Position numbers and translations under genes: made by a program
The notes under the pieces: model-generated
Databases searched by the model: none
What the model saw: the letters and a program-made list of their open reading frames with translations, nothing else
What the model was told of the DNA's origin: nothing
Shown here: one piece after another, positions 3,456-62,644 of the stretch
How positions within the stretch are numbered: the first letter of the stretch is position 1
Layout of the letters: every line of letters begins with the position of its first letter
From: a virus
Taxonomy: Duplodnaviria; Caudoviricetes
Virus record (IMG/VR): IMGVR_UViG_3300033067_000343
Span: 17,247-81,246 of that record
DNA: 64,000 nt
Direction: 5' to 3' (one strand)

Positions 3456-5027
3456 ATGGCTGTCGTACAGATTAGTAGAATTCAAGCCCGTAGAGGTTTA
3501 CAACAAGATTTACCAACCCTAGCAAGTGCCGAACTTGGCTGGAGCGTTGACCAGCGTAGATTGTTTATTGGTAACGGTACCCTTACTGAAGGCGCCCCTA
3601 CCGAAGGTGTTACTGAAATTTTAACTCAGTACACAGACTTAACAACAGTATTACGTAACTACACATTCCGCGGCAACGCGGGTGGATACACAGCACAAAC
3701 TGGTCCATCTATGTTGAGTCCGACTGTTCGTAGTTTCCAAGATAAACTTGACGATTTTGTTAACGTTAAAGACTTTGGTGCAACCGGTAACGGAGTTACT
3801 GATGACACAGCAGCGATTAATAGAGCCATTACACAGATCTATTATGCTCCACACCTAAATGATACAAGAGTACGCAGAACCTTGTATTTTCCTGCAGGTA
3901 CTTACAATGTATCTGGCACAGTGTTGTTAATTCCACCTTATGCACGTTTAGTTGGCGACGGTATTGAAAGTACCGTTATCCAACAAACAGACGGAACACA
4001 ACCTTGCTTAATGCAGGTAACTGACAGCTTGTACCAAACTGGTGCTAGCCTAGGTCAAAACAGTGCAACCCTACCTGGTTATGTAACTATTGAAGAAATG
4101 AGTTTAGCAAACACCAACGACAAGGACATTATTATCCTTGACAGTGTGATGCACTTTACATTCTTCTCCGTTGAGTTTTTAGGCAGTTTGTCTAACCCAA
4201 CTACCGCAGGTAGCCAAGCATACGCTGGCGTTAAGGTTAAGTCTTTTGCTCGTACCAGTGAAAACGTTAACTTCTGGTCTTGCAACTTTAAGAATACTCG
4301 TTACGCTGTGCTAAGTGATGACGCAGGTGCCGATGTTAAATTTAACGGATGCTCCTTCGTTGGTTTGTATAAAGGCATGAAGTTGGGCCAAAACAGTACG
4401 CCCACAACAATGCCATCTAACTACAAGATTATCAACTGCGTATTCTATAGCATTGCTAACTCCGCAATTGAATGCTATGCAGGTGTAAGCGGGGTATTGA
4501 GCTCTGGTAACAACTACCTTGACGTTGGCAATAACTTTGCTGGTGTGGGTAGCCCTGTAGCTCCTGTGTTGAGCTTTGTGTCTGACGGTAACTACAGCTT
4601 GTGCGACACCTTTGCACGTACTGATGCCGACGACCTTGTGCAAAAACGTATCAGCTACAACGGAAGCAAGTTTGTAAGCATTCAGTCTAACGTGGGCTTG
4701 GTATCTGGTAATTATGTAACTGGTATCGGCGGCACTGTGGTGTTAACAAACAATACACCAGTCTATGCGTCCACAGGTATTGTGTTACGTGATGCATGTC
4801 AAGTAAACTATACAATCATTCGTGGCATTACGTTAAGACATGGATCCTTTGTTTACGCTGGATCTAACTCTCAACAAAACTTTTCCGACAACTACATGAT
4901 GTCTGGATTAAATACTATCACATTATCAGCAGGCCTAACCCTAGGCGGCGATGCTGTTATTGTGTATCAGACTACTGATACTGGCGTTGACGCCACAATG
5001 AAATACAACATCAACTATTTTGATTAA
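3456..5027 (+). CDS. tail fibre/spike with pectate-lyase-like beta-helix
   Basis: N-terminal RIQARRG..L..AELGW..D..RLFIGNG anchor motif; VNVKDFGATGNGVTDDTAAINRAI; LYFPAGTY. Confidence 0.75.
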   Translation: MAVVQISRIQARRGLQQDLPTLASAELGWSVDQRRLFIGNGTLTEGAPTEGVTEILTQYTDLTTVLRNYTFRGNAGGYTAQTGPSMLSPTVRSFQDKLDDFVNVKDFGATGNGVTDDTAAINRAITQIYYAPHLNDTRVRRTLYFPAGTYNVSGTVLLIPPYARLVGDGIESTVIQQTDGTQPCLMQVTDSLYQTGASLGQNSATLPGYVTIEEMSLANTNDKDIIILDSVMHFTFFSVEFLGSLSNPTTAGSQAYAGVKVKSFARTSENVNFWSCNFKNTRYAVLSDDAGADVKFNGCSFVGLYKGMKLGQNSTPTTMPSNYKIINCVFYSIANSAIECYAGVSGVLSSGNNYLDVGNNFAGVGSPVAPVLSFVSDGNYSLCDTFARTDADDLVQKRISYNGSKFVSIQSNVGLVSGNYVTGIGGTVVLTNNTPVYASTGIVLRDACQVNYTIIRGITLRHGSFVYAGSNSQQNFSDNYMMSGLNTITLSAGLTLGGDAVIVYQTTDTGVDATMKYNINYFD

Positions 5028-5477: not shown

Positions 5478-7781
5478 ATGAGTCAAATACAAGTAACAAA
5501 AAGAGACGGACGTAAAGAGCCGCTAAATCTAGAAAAATTACATAAGGTTGTGTTTTGGGCAACCGAGGGCATTACAGGAGTTAGTGCTAGCGAAGTAGAA
5601 ATTAATAGTCATGTGCAGTTTTATAACGGTATCAAAAGCACAGACATCCAAGAAACCCTAATCAAGAGTGCAGCAGATTTAATTAGTGAAGAGTCACCCA
5701 ACTATCAATACGTTGCAGGTAGACTACTAACATATCACATCTACAAACAAGTATACGGCGGCTACACACCTTGGCCTCTACTAAAATTAGTTAAGCGTAA
5801 CATTGACATTGGTTACTACACTCCTGAGCTGTTGGAAAACTACTCAGAGGATGAGATCAATCAACTGGATACCTACCTCCACCACCGTCGTGATGAGAAC
5901 TTCACCTATGTTGCAATGGAACAATGGCGTGGCAAGTACCTAGTACAAAACCGCGTCACCAATGAGCTATACGAAACTCCACAGTCAGCATACATGATGA
6001 TTGCTGCCACGTTGTTTATGGCTTATCCTAAAGAAACACGTATGCAATGGGTAAAGGATTACTATGATGCTATTTCTAACTTTGATATTTCCTTGCCTAC
6101 TCCTGTTATGGCTGGGGTTCGCACTCCACAAAAACAATTTAGTTCGTGTGTGCTTATCGAGTCTGGCGATAGTTTGGACAGTATCAATGCTACTGCATCT
6201 TCAATCGTTAAATACGTCTCACAAAAAGCTGGAATTGGTATTGGAGCAGGACGAATTCGGGCGTTGGGTTCGCCTATCCGCTCCGGCGATGCGTACCACA
6301 CAGGAGTTACGCCCTTCCTTAAACTATTTCAGGCCGCAACACGCTCTTGTTCGCAAGGTGGCGTAAGAAACGGTGCAGCAACAATCTACTATCCAATTTG
6401 GCACTTAGAAGCCGAAGACCTATTGGTGTTGAAAAACAACAAAGGTACAGAAGACAACCGTGTTCGTCAAATGGACTACGGTGTGCAGTTCAACAAACTA
6501 ATGTATGAGCGTTTGATCACAGGCGGTGACATTACCCTGTTTAGCCCACATGATGTTCCTGAGATGTATGAAGCATTCTTTAACGACCAGGACAAGTTCC
6601 GTGAGTTGTATGAGAAAGCAGAACGTAACACCAAGCTACGTAAAAAGACTTTCAAGGCATCAGAACTGTTTAGCAAGTTCATGACTGAGCGTAAAGACAC
6701 TGGTCGCATTTATTTGATGAACGTGGACCATGCCAATACACATAGCCCATTCAAAGAAAAGCTACATCCTATCAAGATGAGCAACTTGTGTACAGAGATT
6801 GACTTGCCTACTAAGCCATTGAACGACATCAATGACGAACTAGGTCGTATTGCATTGTGTACTCTATCTGCACAGAACTGGGGCAACGTTAAGAAGCCGC
6901 AAGACTTTGAGCGTATGTGTACTCTAAGCGTTCGCGGTCTAGATGCTTTGTTGAGCTATCAGAACTATCCTGTTAAGGCAGCAGAACTAGCAACAAAAGA
7001 ATTCCGTCCAATTGGTAACGGCATTATCAACTTTGCTTACTTCTTGGCCAAGCACGATGTTAGCTACAGTGACCCTGCTGCACTTGCACTAGTTGACGAG
7101 TATGCAGAAGCATGGTCATACTACTTGATCAAAGCAAGTGCTGACCTAGCTAAAGAGCAAGGACCTTGCGAGAAGTGGGAAGAACTAAAGTATGCCGATG
7201 GTATCTTGCCAATCGACACACGTAAGAAAGAAGTTGACGAACTTGTTGAGCATAAAGAGCGTATGCCATGGCGTGCTCTGCGTGAACAGATCCTAGACTC
7301 CGGCATTCGCAATGCAACACTAATGGCTCTAATGCCAGCAGAAACATCTGCACAGATCTCTAATGCCACTAACGGTATTGAAGCTCCACGCAGCTATGTT
7401 TCTATTAAGCAAAGCAAGCACGGTGTATTGAAACAGGTTGTACCTGAATTTAAGAAACTTAAGAACAAATACGAATTGTTATGGGACCAACGTAGCCCGG
7501 AAGGCTACTTAAAACTTTGTGCAGTATTGCAAAAATGGATTGATCAAGGCATTAGTGTCAACACTTCGTACAATCCTAAGTTCTACGAAGATGAAAAGAT
7601 CCCTATGAGTGAGATGCTCCAGCACCTGATCATGTGCTACAAATACGGAACTAAACAACTTTACTATTTCAACACCAATGATGGTCAGGGCGAAATTGAC
7701 GTTGATAAGTTATCAGCTGCATTACAATTGCCAGCAGAAGAACTTATGGACCAAGAAGATTGCGATTCCTGCGTAATTTAA
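5478..7781 (+). CDS. nrdA: class Ia ribonucleotide reductase alpha subunit
   Basis: ATP cone (VTKRDG), SSCVLI, GGVRNGA, SNLCTEI, PAETS, C-terminal CDSC. Confidence 0.97.
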   Translation: MSQIQVTKRDGRKEPLNLEKLHKVVFWATEGITGVSASEVEINSHVQFYNGIKSTDIQETLIKSAADLISEESPNYQYVAGRLLTYHIYKQVYGGYTPWPLLKLVKRNIDIGYYTPELLENYSEDEINQLDTYLHHRRDENFTYVAMEQWRGKYLVQNRVTNELYETPQSAYMMIAATLFMAYPKETRMQWVKDYYDAISNFDISLPTPVMAGVRTPQKQFSSCVLIESGDSLDSINATASSIVKYVSQKAGIGIGAGRIRALGSPIRSGDAYHTGVTPFLKLFQAATRSCSQGGVRNGAATIYYPIWHLEAEDLLVLKNNKGTEDNRVRQMDYGVQFNKLMYERLITGGDITLFSPHDVPEMYEAFFNDQDKFRELYEKAERNTKLRKKTFKASELFSKFMTERKDTGRIYLMNVDHANTHSPFKEKLHPIKMSNLCTEIDLPTKPLNDINDELGRIALCTLSAQNWGNVKKPQDFERMCTLSVRGLDALLSYQNYPVKAAELATKEFRPIGNGIINFAYFLAKHDVSYSDPAALALVDEYAEAWSYYLIKASADLAKEQGPCEKWEELKYADGILPIDTRKKEVDELVEHKERMPWRALREQILDSGIRNATLMALMPAETSAQISNATNGIEAPRSYVSIKQSKHGVLKQVVPEFKKLKNKYELLWDQRSPEGYLKLCAVLQKWIDQGISVNTSYNPKFYEDEKIPMSEMLQHLIMCYKYGTKQLYYFNTNDGQGEIDVDKLSAALQLPAEELMDQEDCDSCVI

Positions 7782-19119: not shown

Positions 19120-19499
19120 CAACCAATTTTATAACACCACCGGACTTTGTAGAAGATCCGAACCATACTATTCTGCTAATTGATGCAGACCCTGTTGATG
19201 TAGAAACATTGGCTTACCTGTGTGCAGGACACGAAGAAGCATTTAACGTTTATTTGTATCGTGAAGATATGGATAACGATCTTTGGCTCAATCAAGTTGC
19301 TGACCGTGCTGATACAATTATCGTAAATACTATAGATAACAAACTAAGTATCATTAAAGATAATTTTATTGACTTTCAAAAAACTTATTACTATGGACCC
19401 AAGCATTTCTTGCATAACACAAGACGATGCGAAACTCTATTAGATTATTTTGTAATTCGAGCTAATGACAGAAAACATCAAACTCCAAGTCCATTGTAA
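19116..19499 (+). CDS. hypothetical protein
   Basis: 127-aa coupled ORF. Confidence 0.6.
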   Translation: MTTNFITPPDFVEDPNHTILLIDADPVDVETLAYLCAGHEEAFNVYLYREDMDNDLWLNQVADRADTIIVNTIDNKLSIIKDNFIDFQKTYYYGPKHFLHNTRRCETLLDYFVIRANDRKHQTPSPL

Positions 19500-20673
19500 C
19501 TTCTGCGGTAAGAACCGTAATGAAGTAGATAAACTAATTGTTGCAAACGATGCAGGTATCTGTAACGAGTGCATCAGCTTATGCAGTAACATCATTAACA
19601 AAGAGCGTAATGATGAGTTCCGCAAAGACAAAAAGGTCAGTAAAGCACTAGACCCTATTAAGATTAAGAACCACCTCGACGAGTATGTGATTGGGCAGGA
19701 TGCTGCTAAGATTGCCCTAAGCGTTGGCGTTGTTAATCACTACAAACGCATCTTCTTTGAAAGTGCAGTAGAGCTAGAGAAGTCAAACATTCTAGTATTT
19801 GGGCCAACAGGATCGGGTAAAACACTGTTAGCCAAAACAATTGCACGTTACCTAAACGTTCCATTTGTTGTAGCAGATGCAACTACCTTAACTGAAGCAG
19901 GATACGTAGGCGACGATGTGGAAAGCATTATTGGTGGACTGCTATCCGCAGCAGACAATGACGTTGCACGTTGTGAGCAGGGCATTATCTTCCTAGACGA
20001 AGTAGACAAGATTGCCCGAAAAAGCGAAGGCGCAAGTATTACCCGCGACGTAAGTGGCGAAGGTGTACAGCAAGCTCTACTAAAGCTAGTAGAAGGCACC
20101 AAGTGCAAGGTAAGTGTAAACGGTGGCAAGAAGCATCCTGCATTGGATCAAGTGGAAATTGATACAAGCAAGATTCTGTTTGTTGCAGGTGGTGCATTTC
20201 CGGGACTAGAGAAACTAGTGGAACGTAGACAGCGTGGATCTAACATTGGATTTAACGGCCCACTATCAACTGAGAATTTAGACAGCACACAAGTTACGCC
20301 CGAAGACTTTATCAAGTTTGGAATGATTCCCGAATTCTGCGGACGTTTTCCTATTACAGTTCAAATCGATGAGCTAACTGTAGACGACTTTATTCGGATT
20401 CTCAAAGAACCTAAAAACAACTTGCTGGCACAAATGAAGTTCTATTTTGAAAGCGACGAAATAGAATTAACGTTTACAGACGATGCAGTGTTAGCAGTAG
20501 CAGAATTGGCGCATGAGCAGCATGTAGGTGCTCGTGGACTAAAAACCATATTAGAGCGTACTCTAATGCCCTACATGTACACCCTAGCTGAAATTAAAAA
20601 GCAGGGGTTTAAAAAGATCGAAATAACTGACAAAGTTGTTAAATATAACGATCCACCCAATTTTATAGAATAA
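19465..20673 (+). CDS. clpX: ATP-dependent Clp protease ATPase subunit ClpX
   Basis: C4 zinc domain (CNFC..C..C), [12 protein letters not shown] pore loop, [13 protein letters not shown] loop, GARGL. Confidence 0.96.
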
Positions 20674-29712: not shown

Positions 29713-30821
29713 TAAGTTAGGATCGTTCCCAATTCCCTCATGTCATCTGGGTTATACTGAATCTCTGCTTGATCCAATGCAGACCCTAAATTAGTAATCA
29801 GCTCATCAACAACTGTGGTACGCATTGTCTTAAAGAAGGTATTAAAGTTGTGGTCCAATATGTGTTGCATATCTCGCTTCATTTCAACAAGCTCGTGGTG
29901 CGGTGTGTTACATAGCTTCTCTAGAATGGTTAGCACAGCATCGAAGCGATCAACATTGTTTGTCATGCTGTCATAACTCTCATCCCAATAGTCCCCAAAT
30001 GTTTTAAATCCGTACGACCTTAGATATGCAAGATTACCGGCACCAGCTAACAGCAAAAACGGAGTTCGGGCAACAATAGGTTTGAATATCTTTTCAGTTA
30101 AGTGAACCTTGTCTTCGTAGAAGATTGTTTCGGTTACAAGATTAACAAACGCAGATTGCATGTCACCGATGTTAATTTCTGCACTTAGCCCACCGTGTGC
30201 ATTTTTAGTGTCAATGGTTCTTTTTTGATTTAAGAGTTCTAGGTTGTTCTCTATTAGAGATTTGTGTGCAGCCGGCAGTAGTTTGTAATTTGCCAACGAT
30301 TCGATGATGTGAGAGTAATGATCGTTGTTGTAGCTCACATACCCGTGATCCATTAGACCTCTATTAGACAGTTCAGAGATTAGTGCAGCACGGTACAAAC
30401 GTTTATTGGCAATCAAATTGTTATAAGTAATATATACGCGATCGAAATTTACGTTGGCTTGCACAGTATACCAATAGTTTCTGTACCATTCGTGGCACAG
30501 AAGAGCATGGTAAAAATAATGACACGGTATGAGTGAATAGTCTCTACACAATAGGTCTTGCTCTGTGCTATACTCACTGGATATTAAAATTTTTTTATTG
30601 CTGAGTTGAATGCTGCCGTTACGGTATATGCGTGTATAGAAAATAGATAAATCAATCGGTTCTTGATCATAAAAGATAACAGTATTTTTACTGTTTATAT
30701 TCTCTTTATACTCTGTAAAATTTAAAGCAACATTGGTCAAGAGCGGACATATAGATCGTAGTCCTGCATCAGTTAGCAGTCGATCTTGAAACACTTTATA
30801 AAAGAAATCATAAGGAATCAT
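29709..30821 (-). CDS. putative glycosyltransferase-like protein (paralog 2)
   Basis: VNLVTET..HLTEKIFKPI..PF..GAGNLAYLRSYGFKTFGDYWDESYD; probable start ATG 30821. Confidence 0.55.
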   Translation of the reverse strand: MIPYDFFYKVFQDRLLTDAGLRSICPLLTNVALNFTEYKENINSKNTVIFYDQEPIDLSIFYTRIYRNGSIQLSNKKILISSEYSTEQDLLCRDYSLIPCHYFYHALLCHEWYRNYWYTVQANVNFDRVYITYNNLIANKRLYRAALISELSNRGLMDHGYVSYNNDHYSHIIESLANYKLLPAAHKSLIENNLELLNQKRTIDTKNAHGGLSAEINIGDMQSAFVNLVTETIFYEDKVHLTEKIFKPIVARTPFLLLAGAGNLAYLRSYGFKTFGDYWDESYDSMTNNVDRFDAVLTILEKLCNTPHHELVEMKRDMQHILDHNFNTFFKTMRTTVVDELITNLGSALDQAEIQYNPDDMRELGTILTY

Positions 30822-36579: not shown

Positions 36580-37597
36580 ACATCATAACCGCAAAGTTGT
36601 GATCCACTAGGGGTTTTATTTTGTCTAAAATTTCTGCAGGGTTTTGGGTAGATAGCCAACGCAGTTGTTCGCATGCCATTGCCCAACGTGTGCGGCCGTC
36701 TTCTATAGTATCGTAACTTTCGTCAATGATTCCGTCAAATGTTCGGAACCCTAACGCACGAAGGTTACGCAAGTAATGCTGGCCTGCAAACATAACAAAC
36801 AAGCGTCGAGCAATAATAGGTTTGGCGGTCTTTTCGGTGTAGAAGCTGTATTCGTTGCTAAAGTTTGTTTCTGCAATTACAGTGTAATTGGTACGATTAT
36901 AAATGTCTATGGGAATCACTTGGCTCAAGCTCATGTGGTGCCCAAAGTAATCGACCATGTCAACGGTCCATTGTGGGGTATTAATAAATCTGAGACCAGG
37001 TTGCTGCCATGACCATAAATCGTGTTCGCTTGCAAAATCAATCTGATGCTCGTTAAAGTACGTCATCATGTATTGTTCTACACGCAAGTTTGATCTTGCA
37101 AAATTGTGTATGAAATCTCTATGCTGTTTCTTTCTTCCCAGCAGTATGTCGAAGTGAGATTCCTTTGGGCCATCTTTTAATCTAGACAATATCTCTGGCA
37201 AATGTTCTTTGTAGAAATGCCGACTGGTTTCAAACCAATCTAAGTATTCGTGTACTTGTGCATTTTGCAAAGAGAAATTTAACTTGCCACAGATAAAGAA
37301 CGTGATATTTGCGTGATCGTTGTCACGAATGAATTGTGTAGTTACATCGTGTAACTCACTGCCCACAACAAATACATGATTGCTAAACTCTCTTAGCTGA
37401 TCTAGTTTACTTTGTGTGTCGCGGGTAAAGGGATAGGGTAAGTGGACAAACGCTATGTTAACAGGATGGCCACTATTCAAAAAATGACCTAGATCACTGT
37501 AAACTGCCCACTCGTTAGGAGTGTGTGTTTTAAAATGATCTAGGTGATATCGTATAGTTTCGGAATCTCTAAAGACCCCGATATTACGAAAAAACAT
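36509..37597 (-). CDS. putative glycosyltransferase-like protein (paralog 3)
   Basis: HMSLSQVIPIDIY..YTVIAET..YTEKTAKPIIARRLF..LRALGFRTFDGIIDESYD, close to paralog 1. Confidence 0.55.
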   Translation of the reverse strand: MFFRNIGVFRDSETIRYHLDHFKTHTPNEWAVYSDLGHFLNSGHPVNIAFVHLPYPFTRDTQSKLDQLREFSNHVFVVGSELHDVTTQFIRDNDHANITFFICGKLNFSLQNAQVHEYLDWFETSRHFYKEHLPEILSRLKDGPKESHFDILLGRKKQHRDFIHNFARSNLRVEQYMMTYFNEHQIDFASEHDLWSWQQPGLRFINTPQWTVDMVDYFGHHMSLSQVIPIDIYNRTNYTVIAETNFSNEYSFYTEKTAKPIIARRLFVMFAGQHYLRNLRALGFRTFDGIIDESYDTIEDGRTRWAMACEQLRWLSTQNPAEILDKIKPLVDHNFAVMMSKGWMQDYVDSLESAVDGILPQT

Positions 37598-58852: not shown

Positions 58853-59611
58853 ATGTATTACTATGTCTACCAGATCACTAACCTACTAAACAATAAGATT
58901 TATGTAGGTAAACACAAATCAAAAAAACATCCGTCTGGGAACGGCTACTACGGTTCCGGGAAACAAATCAAAGCCGCCATAGAAAAGTATGGTATAGAAA
59001 ACTTCAAGAAAGAAGTTCTACACTACTGCAACTCTATGGAAGAAATGGCCAACAAAGAGTTGAGCATAGTAACAGAAGATTTTGTAAAGCGTAAAGATAC
59101 CTACAATATGCACAAGGGTGGTCCTGGAGGTTGGGATCACTATAACGGCAGCAAACAGCATAGTGCAAACTCAAGCAAAGGCGGTAAAAAGCGAGCTCGT
59201 GATCCTGCTAATCCTTTTTACAATGCAGAGTTTCAGGAAAAGTATAGCTGGACTCGTTCGCCCGAGCATATGAAACTAATGAATGAACGAGCCAAGGACC
59301 CAGAAGCTATTGCAAAAAGGCAAGCAACATTTAAGAAGCGTGGACACAGCCAAGGCGAAAAAAATTCTCAATTTGGAAGATTCTGGATTTCTAATGTGTT
59401 GACTAAAGAAGTCAAACGCATTACAATAAATGACACTATACCAGAAGGATGGGTCCGAGGTAAGAAAGGACATACAATTACCAAATGTTGGGTAAATAAT
59501 GGTATAAAAGAACATTACATCTTGTTAGAAAAAGAACAAGACTATAAACTTAAAGGGTTTAGTAGTGGCAGACTTAAACAAAGTATGCCACAAAACAGAA
59601 TAGTAGTTTAA
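58853..59611 (+). mobile_element. free-standing GIY-YIG (Seg-like) homing endonuclease gene
   Basis: YVYQITN..NNKIYVGKH, YYGSG, AIEKYG.ENFKKEVL, YNM..GG; flanked by direct repeat GTTCTGGAC. Confidence 0.85.
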
Positions 59612-59614
59612 GGC

Positions 59615-59930
59615 TTGAATAGAAAGAAGTTCTGGACCCGGCTATCGTAGGCCGGCAGGTCCACCATAAAACACATTTAAGGTTGTCCTAAGACTGTCGG
59701 GGGCTAAGGTAACAGGGGACAACTGTAATTCCCTCGTAGTGTGTTTTATAATGGGCCTGAAAGGTATCGACAGGGCAACAAGTATTGACAGGATCTACTC
59801 GGCAAGGTAGAAGCCGTTAGGGTTGGGGATTCCTGGCCGAAGACAACAAAAAGTTAGACGCAAACGACAACGTTTTCGCATTGGCAGCGTAAGCTGACTT
59901 GGGTAGTTATACCTCGAAACAGAAAATAAC
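59615..59930 (+). ncRNA. ssrA: circularly permuted two-piece tmRNA, tag ANDNVFALAA
   Basis: 3' acceptor CAGGTCC-A-CCA (59656-59666) precedes 5' GGGCCTG (59753-59759) with G3.U70; paired intervening segment; ATCGAC after D-loop; tag 59860-59892. Confidence 0.88.
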
Positions 59931-59956
59931 AAATAGGCTCTTCGGAGCCTATTTTT
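59931..59956 (+). terminator. intrinsic terminator after tmRNA
   Basis: AAATAGGCTC-TTCG-GAGCCTATTT plus T run. Confidence 0.9.
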
Positions 59957-59988
59957 CTATCTGCGTAATATACCCTATAAATATTTCT

Positions 59989-60966
59989 ATGAAAAAATTC
60001 TTTTGCCCAGCACCATGGCGGTCCTTGTACTACCATGTGGACAAATCTGCTGTTTGCTGTATTAGTGCAAAGAAGTTTGATATGAGTCCTGTTGAGTTTA
60101 TGAACAGCGACTATCTTAAGAATCTCAAGACCAAGTTCTTAAATGATGAATTTGATGAAACTTGCCAAGGCTGCAAGTCACTAGAGGATGCAGGACTACA
60201 GAGCATACGTCAACACCTGCTGAGATTGTACGGTGAGTCCACAGTAGAGAATCTCGACTATATGGAGTTACGGGCCAGCAATCTTTGCAACTTTCAATGC
60301 AAGATGTGTGACGGTGATAGCAGTTCATTGATCAGTGGGATTGTTAACACTGTATCAGAATCTGATTGGCTTGAGATACTAACGCTTGCAGAGAATCTCA
60401 AGTACCTTACCTTAACTGGCGGCGAGCCAATGTTAATTAAACACTACTATCAACTGCTGGATCATTTGATAGCAAAAGGCAAGGTAGATATTGACTTGCG
60501 TGTGTACACAAACGGAAGTGTTTACAATCCTATCTTTGTGAGCAAACTGCTACAGTTTAAATCTACATTGAATCTAAGCATAGACGGAGTAGGCAGAACC
60601 GCAGAGCTACAACGCACAGGAACAGAATGGCCCACTGTTAAAGGCAATGTGGATAAGTTTTTAGAGTTACCAGTTAACATCAAATTCCATACCACACTCA
60701 CAAATATTTCTATCATTGATGTGCATTCGTTGGCACAATACTTTATGGATATGGTTGCCCGTAAACCAGATTGTAGATTTGTTGCACACACTGCAAACTC
60801 TCCGGGACACCTAGCAATCTATAACCTAGCTGCACCCTTGTGTAAGACTGCATTACGCAGTATTGATCAAGCGTTAGAGATACTTGTTGGGCCGCAATTT
60901 GATCAATTAGTAGAACAATTAACAGCACATCGCTCTTTATTGGACAAACGTGTCAACGCAATCTAG
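59989..60966 (+). CDS. radical SAM enzyme with N-terminal Cys (SPASM/twitch-like) region
   Basis: CPAPW..CC..C..C; CNFQCKMC; TGGEPM; YTNG; start ATG 59989. Confidence 0.88.
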   Translation: MKKFFCPAPWRSLYYHVDKSAVCCISAKKFDMSPVEFMNSDYLKNLKTKFLNDEFDETCQGCKSLEDAGLQSIRQHLLRLYGESTVENLDYMELRASNLCNFQCKMCDGDSSSLISGIVNTVSESDWLEILTLAENLKYLTLTGGEPMLIKHYYQLLDHLIAKGKVDIDLRVYTNGSVYNPIFVSKLLQFKSTLNLSIDGVGRTAELQRTGTEWPTVKGNVDKFLELPVNIKFHTTLTNISIIDVHSLAQYFMDMVARKPDCRFVAHTANSPGHLAIYNLAAPLCKTALRSIDQALEILVGPQFDQLVEQLTAHRSLLDKRVNAI

Positions 60967-61001
60967 CTTTAAAACGTTGTATGTGTGTTAAGGAGTTCTG
61001 T

Positions 61002-61145
61002 ATGCAATGCTCAGATTCGAAACCATCAAAGAATGAACCAGTTACGTTTAGTAGAACATGGATGTTTGGCTGCGGTAGCTGCGACACCAAACGTTCCGTA
61101 CCTTGCAAAAACTGCAAACATTTTGTTCAAACTGTTGCAAAATAA
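61002..61145 (+). CDS. small zinc-finger protein (47 aa, not in track)
   Basis: SD AAGGAG; CGSC-x7-CKNC. Confidence 0.6.
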   Translation: MQCSDSKPSKNEPVTFSRTWMFGCGSCDTKRSVPCKNCKHFVQTVAK

Positions 61146-61163
61146 ATCTAGTTGTTATATAAT
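61135..61163 (+). promoter_or_regulatory. sigma70 promoter for tRNA operon
   Basis: TTGCAA-17-TATAAT, 8 nt before tRNA. Confidence 0.7.
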
Positions 61164-61171
61164 ACACACAT

Positions 61172-61246
61172 GCGTTAGTAGCTAAGTGGCATAGCAGGCG
61201 ATTCTAAACCGCTGAATCACGGGTTCGATTCCCGTCTAACGCACCA
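61172..61246 (+). tRNA. amber suppressor tRNA, anticodon CUA
   Basis: 7-bp acceptor GCGTTAG/CTAACGC, D-arm GCTA/TAGC, loop TT-CTA-AA, T-arm ACGGG-TTCGATT-CCCGT, A73, encoded CCA. Confidence 0.9.
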
Positions 61247-61456
61247 TAGTAGAGTGCATCGTAAGCCGTTAGTGGTTGAGCCTGAACGAGCACACAGTAT
61301 TCCTAGGATAGCTGGTCGCAGCCGAGGTAACGCTCATCGCCACATCCAATGTATTCTACTATGGTTCATATTGAAGTGCTTTGAAGGAGCAGACCGGCGC
61401 ACAACTCCGCGGTAAGTGATAGTGGCCTTAGCATGCAGCAGAACACTTCAATATGG
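61243..61456 (+). ncRNA. two tandem long-stem RNA modules trailing the tRNA
   Basis: 17-bp stem 61243-61259/61349-61365; 13+4-bp stem 61366-61383/61439-61456. Confidence 0.55.
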
Positions 61457-61472
61457 TTAATAAGGAAAATAC

Positions 61473-61754
61473 ATGCAAGTAATGCACGACAGAGTTTTAA
61501 TTAGAAAGCTCGAACCCGAAACAAAATCCGCAGGCGGCATTATGCTAACCTCTTCTGTTACTCCAGTTTACGAAGCTGAAGTGGTTGCAGTTGGCACAGG
61601 CAAACCAGTTAAAGACAGTGCTCCGATTCCGCTTACAGTAAAAGTAGGCGACCAAGTAATTTACAACCCTGCTGCGACTATCACAGTTTCAGTTAAAGGT
61701 GAAACTTTACTGGTCATCAAAGAAGAAGAAATCTTTGCAATTTTAGACAAGTGA
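61473..61754 (+). CDS. groES: co-chaperonin GroES
   Basis: HDRVLI, SAGGIML mobile loop, VVAVGTG, VKVGD.V, KEEEIFAI. Confidence 0.92.
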   Translation: MQVMHDRVLIRKLEPETKSAGGIMLTSSVTPVYEAEVVAVGTGKPVKDSAPIPLTVKVGDQVIYNPAATITVSVKGETLLVIKEEEIFAILDK

Positions 61755-62038
61755 CAGATTACCTGCTTCGTCATGCATTGAGCGATTCTGACATTGAGTT
61801 TCTAAATGAAACCACAGTGGATTTTGAGATTGTCGGCCCAGATGAGCCAGTATCAGACACAAACTCATTTGATAGTGGGTGGTGTGATATGGCAACTAAT
61901 GCACGTATCATTGCCCATACCAATAGAGCAGTGTTTAGAAATGTTGGCGATCAAGAGTACACGTACTTGAAACTTCGCTATCAAGATCGCCTAATTGAAA
62001 TGCATGACGGCATCAGAAAGATATATAATATAGCATAG
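61751..62038 (+). CDS. hypothetical protein (TAG stop, in frame with next gene)
   Basis: GTGA overlap with groES. Confidence 0.6.
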   Translation: MTDYLLRHALSDSDIEFLNETTVDFEIVGPDEPVSDTNSFDSGWCDMATNARIIAHTNRAVFRNVGDQEYTYLKLRYQDRLIEMHDGIRKIYNIA

Positions 62039-62059
62039 ACATTAACAAAGGAGAACCAA

Positions 62060-62644
62060 ATGTCAAAAACTCAATCGTAGATCAATTACCAATGTAAGGA
62101 ATTAGTGTTCCACTTCAATAAGGGACATCTTACAGATCCGACCATTCCTATGTGGGTCGTTAAAGCACATGGTGTAACATTCTACGTGAATCACGTTACA
62201 GCAGAAATACCTTGGAGCACCAAGGAAACTCCCGATAACCCCAGTACCAAAGGCAGCATCAAATTTAAACGATGTAAGCTAACCATTGACTCCGATAACT
62301 GTGCAACGTTATCTAAGTTAGGCATGCTTGATCGTAATTTGCCAACGCCACACTTGCCGTTTGACCGCATTATTGCACCTGCATATAATGACTTGGCAAC
62401 AGCATTGGAAAACAACGAGTTTAAGCACAGCAAGATCAAATACGTCGAAGGTGCGTGTAGCAGTGAGTTTATCATTTGCGACATTACTGACCGAGATGAT
62501 ATGTTGATGATGGGGCTCAAGTATCCAAATCAATTCCGAGTGCTAAATGCTAACGAAGCCTATTACAAGGACTACGATGGCAAACACAACTCACTTAACA
62601 TGCGTGGCGGTGAAGGGTTTGATGATGACGACTTTGAGGATTAA
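62060..62644 (+). CDS. hypothetical protein with in-frame TAG at codon 7 (candidate amber read-through)
   Basis: AAGGAG-6 nt-ATG TCA AAA ACT CAA TCG TAG ATC AAT ... continuous with track ORF 62105-62644. Confidence 0.6.

Follow-up and report, generated by a model that had tools for sequence, protein, structure and literature searches.

A conserved early in-frame amber codon beside a CUA tRNA gene in large standard-code phages: a probable case of programmed read-through

We studied a stretch of 64,000 nucleotides (the window), the 3' 64 kb of one 81-kb contig from a virus of the Caudoviricetes (IMG/VR record IMGVR_UViG_3300033067_000343; 43% G+C) that CheckV rated as ~23% complete. The window contains a gene for a tRNA with anticodon CUA, here tRNA(CUA), and ~0.8 kb downstream on the same strand a gene with an in-frame TAG a few codons after its start (Table 1). 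We call this TAG the gate and the gene, a member of a family with an invariant FHFNK motif, the gated gene. Comparison with homologous loci showed that the early TAG is conserved and that a tRNA(CUA) gene regularly lies next to it, and the explanation that we consider probable is programmed amber read-through of this one gene by the phage's own tRNA.

Table 1 Features of the tRNA(CUA) locus (positions in the window)
Feature	Position	Strand	Evidence
tRNA gene, anticodon CUA (amber-suppressor type)	61172-61246	+	ARAGORN, Rfam tRNA, direct sequence reading
Gated gene, FHFNK family, 194 codons, in-frame TAG as codon 7	62060-62644	+	Homologue comparison
Shine-Dalgarno (SD) sequence AAGGAG, 6 nt before ATG 62060	62048-62053	+	Sequence reading
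Conserved in-frame amber codon (gate), followed by the Ile codon ATC	62078-62080	+	Homologue comparison
Sigma-70-like site TTGCAA-N17-TATAAT, ending 8 nt 5' of the tRNA gene	61135-61163	+	10/12 consensus matches
Structured spacer between tRNA and groES, two long-range hairpin domains	61244-61472	+	Fold -69.8 kcal/mol, z -2.2
Co-chaperonin GroES (Cpn10) gene	61473-61754	+	Pfam Cpn10 7.6e-23; PHROG 3188
Open reading frame (ORF) of 95 amino acids, stop TAG 62036-62038, in frame with the next gene in this genome	61751-62038	+	
Permuted (two-piece) tmRNA gene, tag ANDNVFALAA	59546-59955	+	Rfam beta_tmRNA 94.1 bits, tmRNA_permuted 92.5 bits

ARAGORN reported a single tRNA gene (anticodon cta) in the window, which is also the sole one of the entire 81,246-bp contig, and the Rfam tRNA model (RF00005) gave it 62.7 bits against a gathering score of 29. 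The complete cloverleaf of the original prediction, made from the letters of the window alone, was thereby confirmed. Read directly, the acceptor stem is GCGTTAG/CTAACGC, followed by the discriminator A73 and an encoded CCA; the D-loop is ordinary and carries GG, the T-loop is TTCGA, the variable loop has 5 nt, and an anticodon stem of 4-5 bp with an A31.C39 mismatch bears the 7-nt anticodon loop UU-CUA-AA, with U33 and a purine at position 37. The prediction had listed the same anticodon loop, short variable loop, A73, CCA and mismatch. Pyrrolysine tRNAs (tRNA-Pyl) are known by a tiny D-loop without G18G19, a 3-nt variable loop and an elongated anticodon stem; tRNA(CUA) has none of these traits and no long variable arm either, as had been foreseen, and that class was ruled out. 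The label 'tRNA-Pyl' in ARAGORN output is merely the program's name for any cta anticodon.

Fifty-two distinct phage tRNAs proved to be one family, in which CUA, A73, CCA, G1-C72 and C2-G71 are invariant and in which the loop YU-CUA-AA is found in all but two members (50/52). In an alignment of 50 tRNAs (the window and 49 loci), compensatory (double) changes were present at 12 of the 16 stem pairs. Because the stems change in this compensatory manner while the anticodon, G1-C72, C2-G71, A73 and CCA do not, the comparison indicates that tRNA(CUA) is a real, selected functional RNA and no pseudogene. Pairs 28-42, 29-41 and 30-40 are paired in every member, and pair 31-39 is mismatched in 42 of the 52 (C.A in 27, A.C in 9, C.C in 5 and U.C in 1), so A31.C39 is a conserved trait of the family; published work on 4-bp anticodon stems deals with the top pair 27-43, not with 31-39 (PMC13092985). 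The pairs G1-C72 and C2-G71 are fixed though the remaining acceptor stem covaries, and they are candidate identity elements.

The gated gene reads MSKTQS-TAG-INYQCKELVFHFNKGHL... up to TAA 62644, and frame 0 is kept through the TAG. Standard gene callers would start it at GTG 62105, downstream of an N-terminal segment, I-x-Y-x-C-K-D/E-L/V-V, that is conserved in the family (more than 1,200 members in the protein database). Loci for comparison were taken from IMG/VR (14 + 80) and from JGI metagenomes (80), and their genes were read upstream from the FHFNK motif. Among 123 distinct homologues, 118 had an in-frame TAG 9-14 codons before FHFNK and no ATG after the TAG; the remaining five were three with a sense codon at the gate position and two with a TAG and then an ATG. 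Homologues that keep the gate reach down to ~51% amino-acid identity, and the stop at the gate is always TAG, never TAA or TGA. All but one of the 61 distinct contexts examined in detail showed the arrangement SD (4-6 nt)-ATG-(1-8 codons)-TAG, with a single codon between ATG and TAG in 40 of these 60, and no ATG, GTG or TTG lay between TAG and FHFNK in 21 of the 61.

The codon on the 3' side of the TAG was Ile in 113 of 113 cases (ATT 97, ATC 15, ATA 1), and over codons +1 to +9 the sequence I-E-Y-A-C-K-D-V-V is retained despite synonymous change (TGT 98/TGC 14, AAG 51/AAA 41, GAT 64/GAC 41, TAT 73/TAC 28). Since the amino acids are kept while synonymous codons vary freely, this stretch is translated. 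The gate therefore combines what is looked for in programmed read-through, a stop conserved at a homologous position and flanks that evolve as coding sequence. Where database proteins have Q in the gate column, a TAG has been translated by code 15 (as in P0003, which matches L001, a locus with TAG), and those that start with 'MFHFNK' are truncated standard-code calls.

Three TAGs near the tRNA gene, at 60964, 62036 and 62078, had been singled out in the original prediction; all of them exist, and the last is the conserved gate, but only this one matters. At 60964 the TAG is the ordinary stop of a radical-SAM gene, with a TAA one codon further on. That at 62036 ends the ORF preceding the gated gene, and a complete 354-kb relative (G002, IMG/VR UViG_3300043418_000072; the relatives are jumbo phages) has a sense codon at this place and other stops before the next gene, so the in-frame link between both ORFs is not conserved. 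A double suppression that joins ORF 61751-62038 to the gated gene, with which it is in frame in this genome, was consequently rejected as the point of the system. Also rejected was frameshift autoregulation of the prfB type, which is marked by a downstream ORF in the +1 frame and a slippery site of the CUU-UGA type; here the ORF stays in frame 0 through the TAG.

The gate and the tRNA are co-located far beyond the window. Seventy-nine gated loci extend 3 kb or more upstream; in 76 of them ARAGORN found a tRNA(CUA) upstream on the same strand, at a median distance of 342 nt from the gated gene (range 52-4129 nt). Among the three exceptions, L050 has a tRNA(CUA) upstream according to Rfam and L054 has one just downstream, which raises the count to 78 of 79. 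At L050 the CUA tRNA is adjoined by an Rfam 'freshwater-2' cis-regulatory RNA (78 bits, 2714-2794, negative strand).

Four distinct loci, reached through the metagenome scan, contain an ungated FHFNK gene: L118 and L119 (GCA at the gate position in both), L120 (on the same contig as L033) and L126 (ATG start). The upstream sequence of L126 is too short to tell whether a tRNA(CUA) is present, and the other three have it upstream. In gate-less homologues the place of the TAG, in frame with the same ATG, is taken by a sense codon (GCA and others), which identifies the ATG ahead of the TAG as the start codon of the family. In all four ungated loci the FHFNK gene is closely preceded by another gene, which starts SD-ATG-NNN-TAG-ATW, and where the tRNA is seen this second gated gene stands between the tRNA and the FHFNK gene. 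Its product, I-x-DKNY-x-YTIIRTDLPIEQQIVQA..., matches Pfam PTH2 weakly (E 0.0014, below the cut-off). The second gated gene is absent from the loci with a gated FHFNK gene, and the PTH2 family is absent from the relatives G000-G003. In this way each phage keeps at least one gene of the early-UAG architecture beside its CUA tRNA, which makes a merely tolerated nonsense mutation hard to maintain as a reading of the TAG.

A tblastn search against cultured phages returned four records, corresponding to three phages. In Rhizobium phage RHph_I1_18 (MN988519, 171 kb) an unannotated match, MSEFM-TAG-NESCREVIFHFNK..., covers the N-terminal domain only, and an annotated tRNA-Pyl(cta) lies directly downstream of this short TAG-bearing homologue. 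In Agrobacterium phage Atu_ph07 and Sinorhizobium phage Phosso this domain follows a helical N-terminal part in one fused protein, its gene has no TAG, and the neighbours there include RNA ligase, peptidyl-tRNA hydrolase and phosphatase genes. Searches of the INPHARED phage DNA around the locus, in near and distant modes, gave no match.

Apart from its CUA tRNA, the genome uses the standard code. A simple, crude codon-usage caller (table 11) gave 119 genes on the 81-kb contig with a coding density of 90%, and their stops were TAA in 83, TGA in 25 and TAG in 11; the 'about seven' TAG-ended genes of the prediction were thus right in order of magnitude and too few by this count. Its further statements, that the long genes are free of TAG breaks and that the genome is not fully recoded, agreed with our results: nrdA (5478-7781), clpX (19465-20673), a tail-fibre-like gene (3456-5027) and nrdB are intact ORFs, and G002 has 456 genes, 88% coding density under code 11 and stops TAA 279, TGA 157 and TAG 20. 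A TAG-recoded (code 15) phage was ruled out by these densities and by the 11/119 and 20/456 genes that end in TAG. A TAG with coding-like sequence in frame on both sides was found nowhere in the 81-kb contig and once, doubtfully, in G002. Two stretches of ~1 kb in the window (29713-30785 and 36580-37596) were left without a confident ORF by the crude gene call.

Beyond the gate, neither the 81-kb contig nor the 354-kb G002 yielded a conserved in-frame TAG; the remaining TAG-to-sense alignments between both genomes all fell within 5' leaders or gene overlaps and were rejected. When the 11 TAG-ended genes of the contig were read through, ten met another stop within 0-40 codons, the exception being ORF 61751-62038, which passes a second TAG into the next ORF. 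TAG makes up ~29% of the stop-type trinucleotides in the DNA yet terminates only 4-9% of the genes, and the next in-frame stop comes at a median of 4 codons after TAG-ended genes versus 9 after TAA/TGA-ended genes (n=23 vs 467; one-sided Mann-Whitney p=0.003, a soft value, as the test pools two related genomes and crude gene calls). The TAG stops thus look leaky, which we take as supportive only.

The arrangement probably serves to make the full-length gated protein only when the tRNA overrides the stop. tRNA(CUA) would act as an amber suppressor that the phage encodes and a host synthetase charges, and its natural target would be the UAG of the gated gene, on the same strand and probably in the same transcript. 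Ribosomes would initiate at the ATG at 62060 behind its SD sequence; in the absence of tRNA(CUA), release factor 1 (RF1) would release a hexapeptide (a dipeptide in most relatives), and with charged tRNA(CUA) in-frame read-through would give the full protein of 194 residues. With so short an aborted product the on/off gate would be cheap. A single promoter appears to drive both the tRNA and the gated mRNA, so the pair would behave as a coherent feed-forward AND-gate, and the protein would appear only once the phage tRNA had been made, processed and charged and was outcompeting RF1.

Several points weigh against this mechanism. Nothing in it is experimental: the sequences show the tRNA, the gate and the conservation and proximity of both, and from these we infer transcription, processing, charging, read-through and the regulatory purpose. 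One gated locus, L106, lacks a tRNA(CUA) within 8 kb. A strong suppressor should be costly, because TAG-ended genes of the phage and many host genes would be read through. With ~23% of the genome in hand, other targets could sit in the missing part; the gene caller was crude, and the back-up-stop test was made on two related genomes.

A further objection is the invariant Ile codon, mostly ATT, after the TAG, which fits the alternative that survives best, though we hold it to be unlikely: ATG-(1-8 codons)-TAG would be a leader mini-ORF, at whose end ribosomes would terminate and then re-initiate at the adjacent AUU/AUC or at GTG 62105, and tRNA(CUA) would serve another purpose. The same Ile codon is found in the second, unrelated gated gene, the mini-ORF is ATG plus one codon only in 40 of the 61 contexts, and GTG 62105, with AAGGA upstream, could yield a truncated product in the window; re-initiation at AUU therefore keeps some plausibility. 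AUU is a poor initiation codon, however; a GTG or other start between TAG and FHFNK is missing in 21 of the 61 contexts, and the SD-like AAGGA in this interval is not conserved. Gate-less homologues are read from the same ATG straight through a sense codon, and a mini-ORF would leave unexplained that the stop is exclusively TAG and that 78 of 79 gated loci have a tRNA(CUA).

Unlikely too is a global role for tRNA(CUA), either in UAG read-through of host and phage genes or as a first step to code 15, with the TAG of the gated gene as a tolerated, 'detoxified' nonsense mutation. Borges et al. (10.1101/2021.08.26.457843) have proposed that standard-code phages acquire suppressors before they are recoded, and a global role would agree with the depletion of TAG as a stop and its backing by nearby stops, with the nearby phage tmRNA, which could handle the non-stop consequences of read-through, and with the retention of tRNA(CUA) by gate-less variants. 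A neutral TAG would decay, however, since most single-base changes turn it into a sense codon, yet 118 of the 123 homologues keep it amid varying neighbour codons; no other gene has acquired an in-frame TAG across 354 kb; and where the FHFNK gene loses the gate, the neighbouring gene has the same gate architecture. These three observations argue for selection for a gate. An artefact or pseudogene, whether an anticodon misassembled in a single metagenomic contig for which no reads were at hand or a broken gene beside a decaying tRNA, is practically excluded by the same anticodon and TAG in more than 100 independent contigs and in one cultured, finished phage genome, and by CUA in 52 distinct tRNAs from independent metagenomes.

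For programmed read-through at the gate the tRNA has to be charged. The synthetase Pfam families tRNA-synt_2b, tRNA-synt_2 and tRNA-synt_1c (class IIa, class IIb and Glu/Gln) were not found in G000-G003, so the charging would have to be done by a host enzyme. In G002, 48 other tRNAs (ARAGORN) are clustered at 280-303 kb and the CUA tRNA stands alone ~106 kb off, near a permuted tmRNA. By a crude comparison with the 49 other tRNAs of G002, tRNA(CUA) resembles Phe, His, Arg and Met tRNAs alike (all ~70%), with no single best class, and where the gate column holds a sense codon it is variable (A, T or N), so that the alignments do not point to the inserted residue. In the E. coli amber suppressors of Normanly, Kleina, Abelson, Miller and McClain, U35 with A73 reportedly favours Lys, and C34-U35 is said to allow Gln; by analogy, Lys or Gln may be the residue inserted by tRNA(CUA). 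At ~299.6-300.1 kb of G002 (L029-L030) there are three 77-nt tRNAs with Leu anticodons (UAA, UAG and CAA) that have no long variable arm, and the array in which they sit has normal type-II Leu tRNAs of 84 nt beside them.

A shared promoter for the tRNA and the gated gene is suggested by the layout of the region. The sigma-70-like site of the original prediction is present, as TTGCAA and TATAAT 17 nt apart, but a promoter scan found no more such sites than in shuffled sequence, and this consensus match is plausible as a promoter and only suggestive. No terminator-like site was found on the + strand between it and position 62644, and a single operon of the tRNA, the spacer, groES, the 95-amino-acid ORF and the gated gene is plausible. 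The spacer, 229 nt long, has 89% identity to its counterpart in L002 and is conserved in part in L167; with a permissive threshold Rfam matched only tRNA and tmRNA and gave no family for the spacer, which may be a structured RNA that is not yet classified or may act in processing. The radical-SAM enzyme gene (59899-60966, +) and a Cys-rich ORF of 54 codons with 8 Cys (60981-61145, +) separate the tmRNA from the tRNA(CUA) gene, a pair of genes that looks like a peptide-modification (RiPP-like) pair, or the ORF like a zinc-ribbon protein.

The gated protein itself had no family in Pfam or PHROGs; a PDB sequence-profile search gave nothing, and the protein atlas, queried with the post-TAG translation of the window, gave no usable match. 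AlphaFold modelled a beta-rich N-domain (pLDDT 91) and a ferredoxin-like C-domain (pLDDT 78 for the whole model). Foldseek found no match to the whole model at E<=0.001, and the best VIA-wide hit (Z 5.2) was a generic ferredoxin-like match to the C-terminal half; with the N-domain model Foldseek gave nothing and the best VIA-wide Z was 3.2. A default ARAGORN run misses the tmRNA of the window, whose 5' end is overlapped by a GIY-YIG homing-endonuclease gene (58853-59611). A tmRNA was found in at least 16 of 60 distinct related loci, in nine of them directly downstream of the gated gene. Complete relatives contain an RF-1-domain (ArfB-like) gene, a 187-residue open frame, inside their tRNA arrays (L117, G002 293773-294084; L116, G001); the 81-kb contig of the window lacks it. 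The company of the gated protein points towards translation quality control, only by guilt by association.

More tentatively, and with considerable doubt, tRNA(CUA) and the early-UAG gate could be a portable, self-contained translational sensor of many large standard-code phages. The gate would move between genes, from the FHFNK family here to the PTH2-like gene in sister lineages, and would be set among rescue functions such as the phage tmRNA and the ArfB-like gene of the relatives. It would report how RF1 termination and tRNA charging are balanced in the infected cell and turn on translation-maintenance factors only when the host translation apparatus is in a defined state.

Several known systems resemble the pair in part. 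Borges et al. (10.1101/2021.08.26.457843) described gut phages (crAss-like, Lak and others) that encode suppressor tRNAs and read TAG as Gln (code 15). There, as here, a phage tRNA(CUA) is proposed to open genes that a standard-code host would terminate, and in-frame stops act as post-transcriptional control. In those phages, however, tens to hundreds of late genes have many in-frame stops and the code-11 coding density collapses, whereas here one codon in one gene is concerned, the standard code with its high coding density is retained and TAG still ends genes. Xanthomonas phage XacN1 is, like the phage studied here, a large standard-code phage with CUA tRNA genes, a jumbo phage in which these are orphans; 18 terminal amber stops were read through in silico and targets 'could not be identified' (PMC5852040). 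An early in-frame TAG behind a start codon, unlike the stops considered for XacN1, is invisible to extension past annotated stops. The autoregulation of prfB (RF2) through an early in-frame UGA is similar in that expression hangs on the competition at a stop a few codons in, but it uses a +1 frameshift and senses its own product, whereas here the frame is unchanged through the TAG, the cognate tRNA is encoded in cis and nothing links the product to release factors. In the synthetic suppressor-tRNA circuit of Ho et al. 2020 (PMC7969014), a coherent feed-forward 'leak dampener', a suppressor tRNA and a nonsense-bearing gene are driven together and the output needs both, as proposed here, with less leak and a sharper induction as the gain; that circuit is engineered, in E. 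coli, with silent nonsense codons, and the phage version is natural, with one early UAG. The gene-tRNA pair, read as proposed, resembles a natural counterpart of such circuits. Full-text literature searches did not find a natural single-gene amber gate described in phages.

The suppressor tRNAs of standard-code phages have so far been a loose end, with no target in XacN1 and, in Borges et al., a role as a step towards recoding. A deeply conserved single early UAG beside tRNA(CUA) would provide such 'orphan' tRNAs with a concrete natural target. Gated genes escape standard annotation pipelines or are truncated by them, as in RHph_I1_18, where the gene is unannotated, and in the many database entries that begin with 'MFHFNK'. 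The presence of the pair in a cultured phage makes directly testable the idea that phages may use one-codon translational gates.
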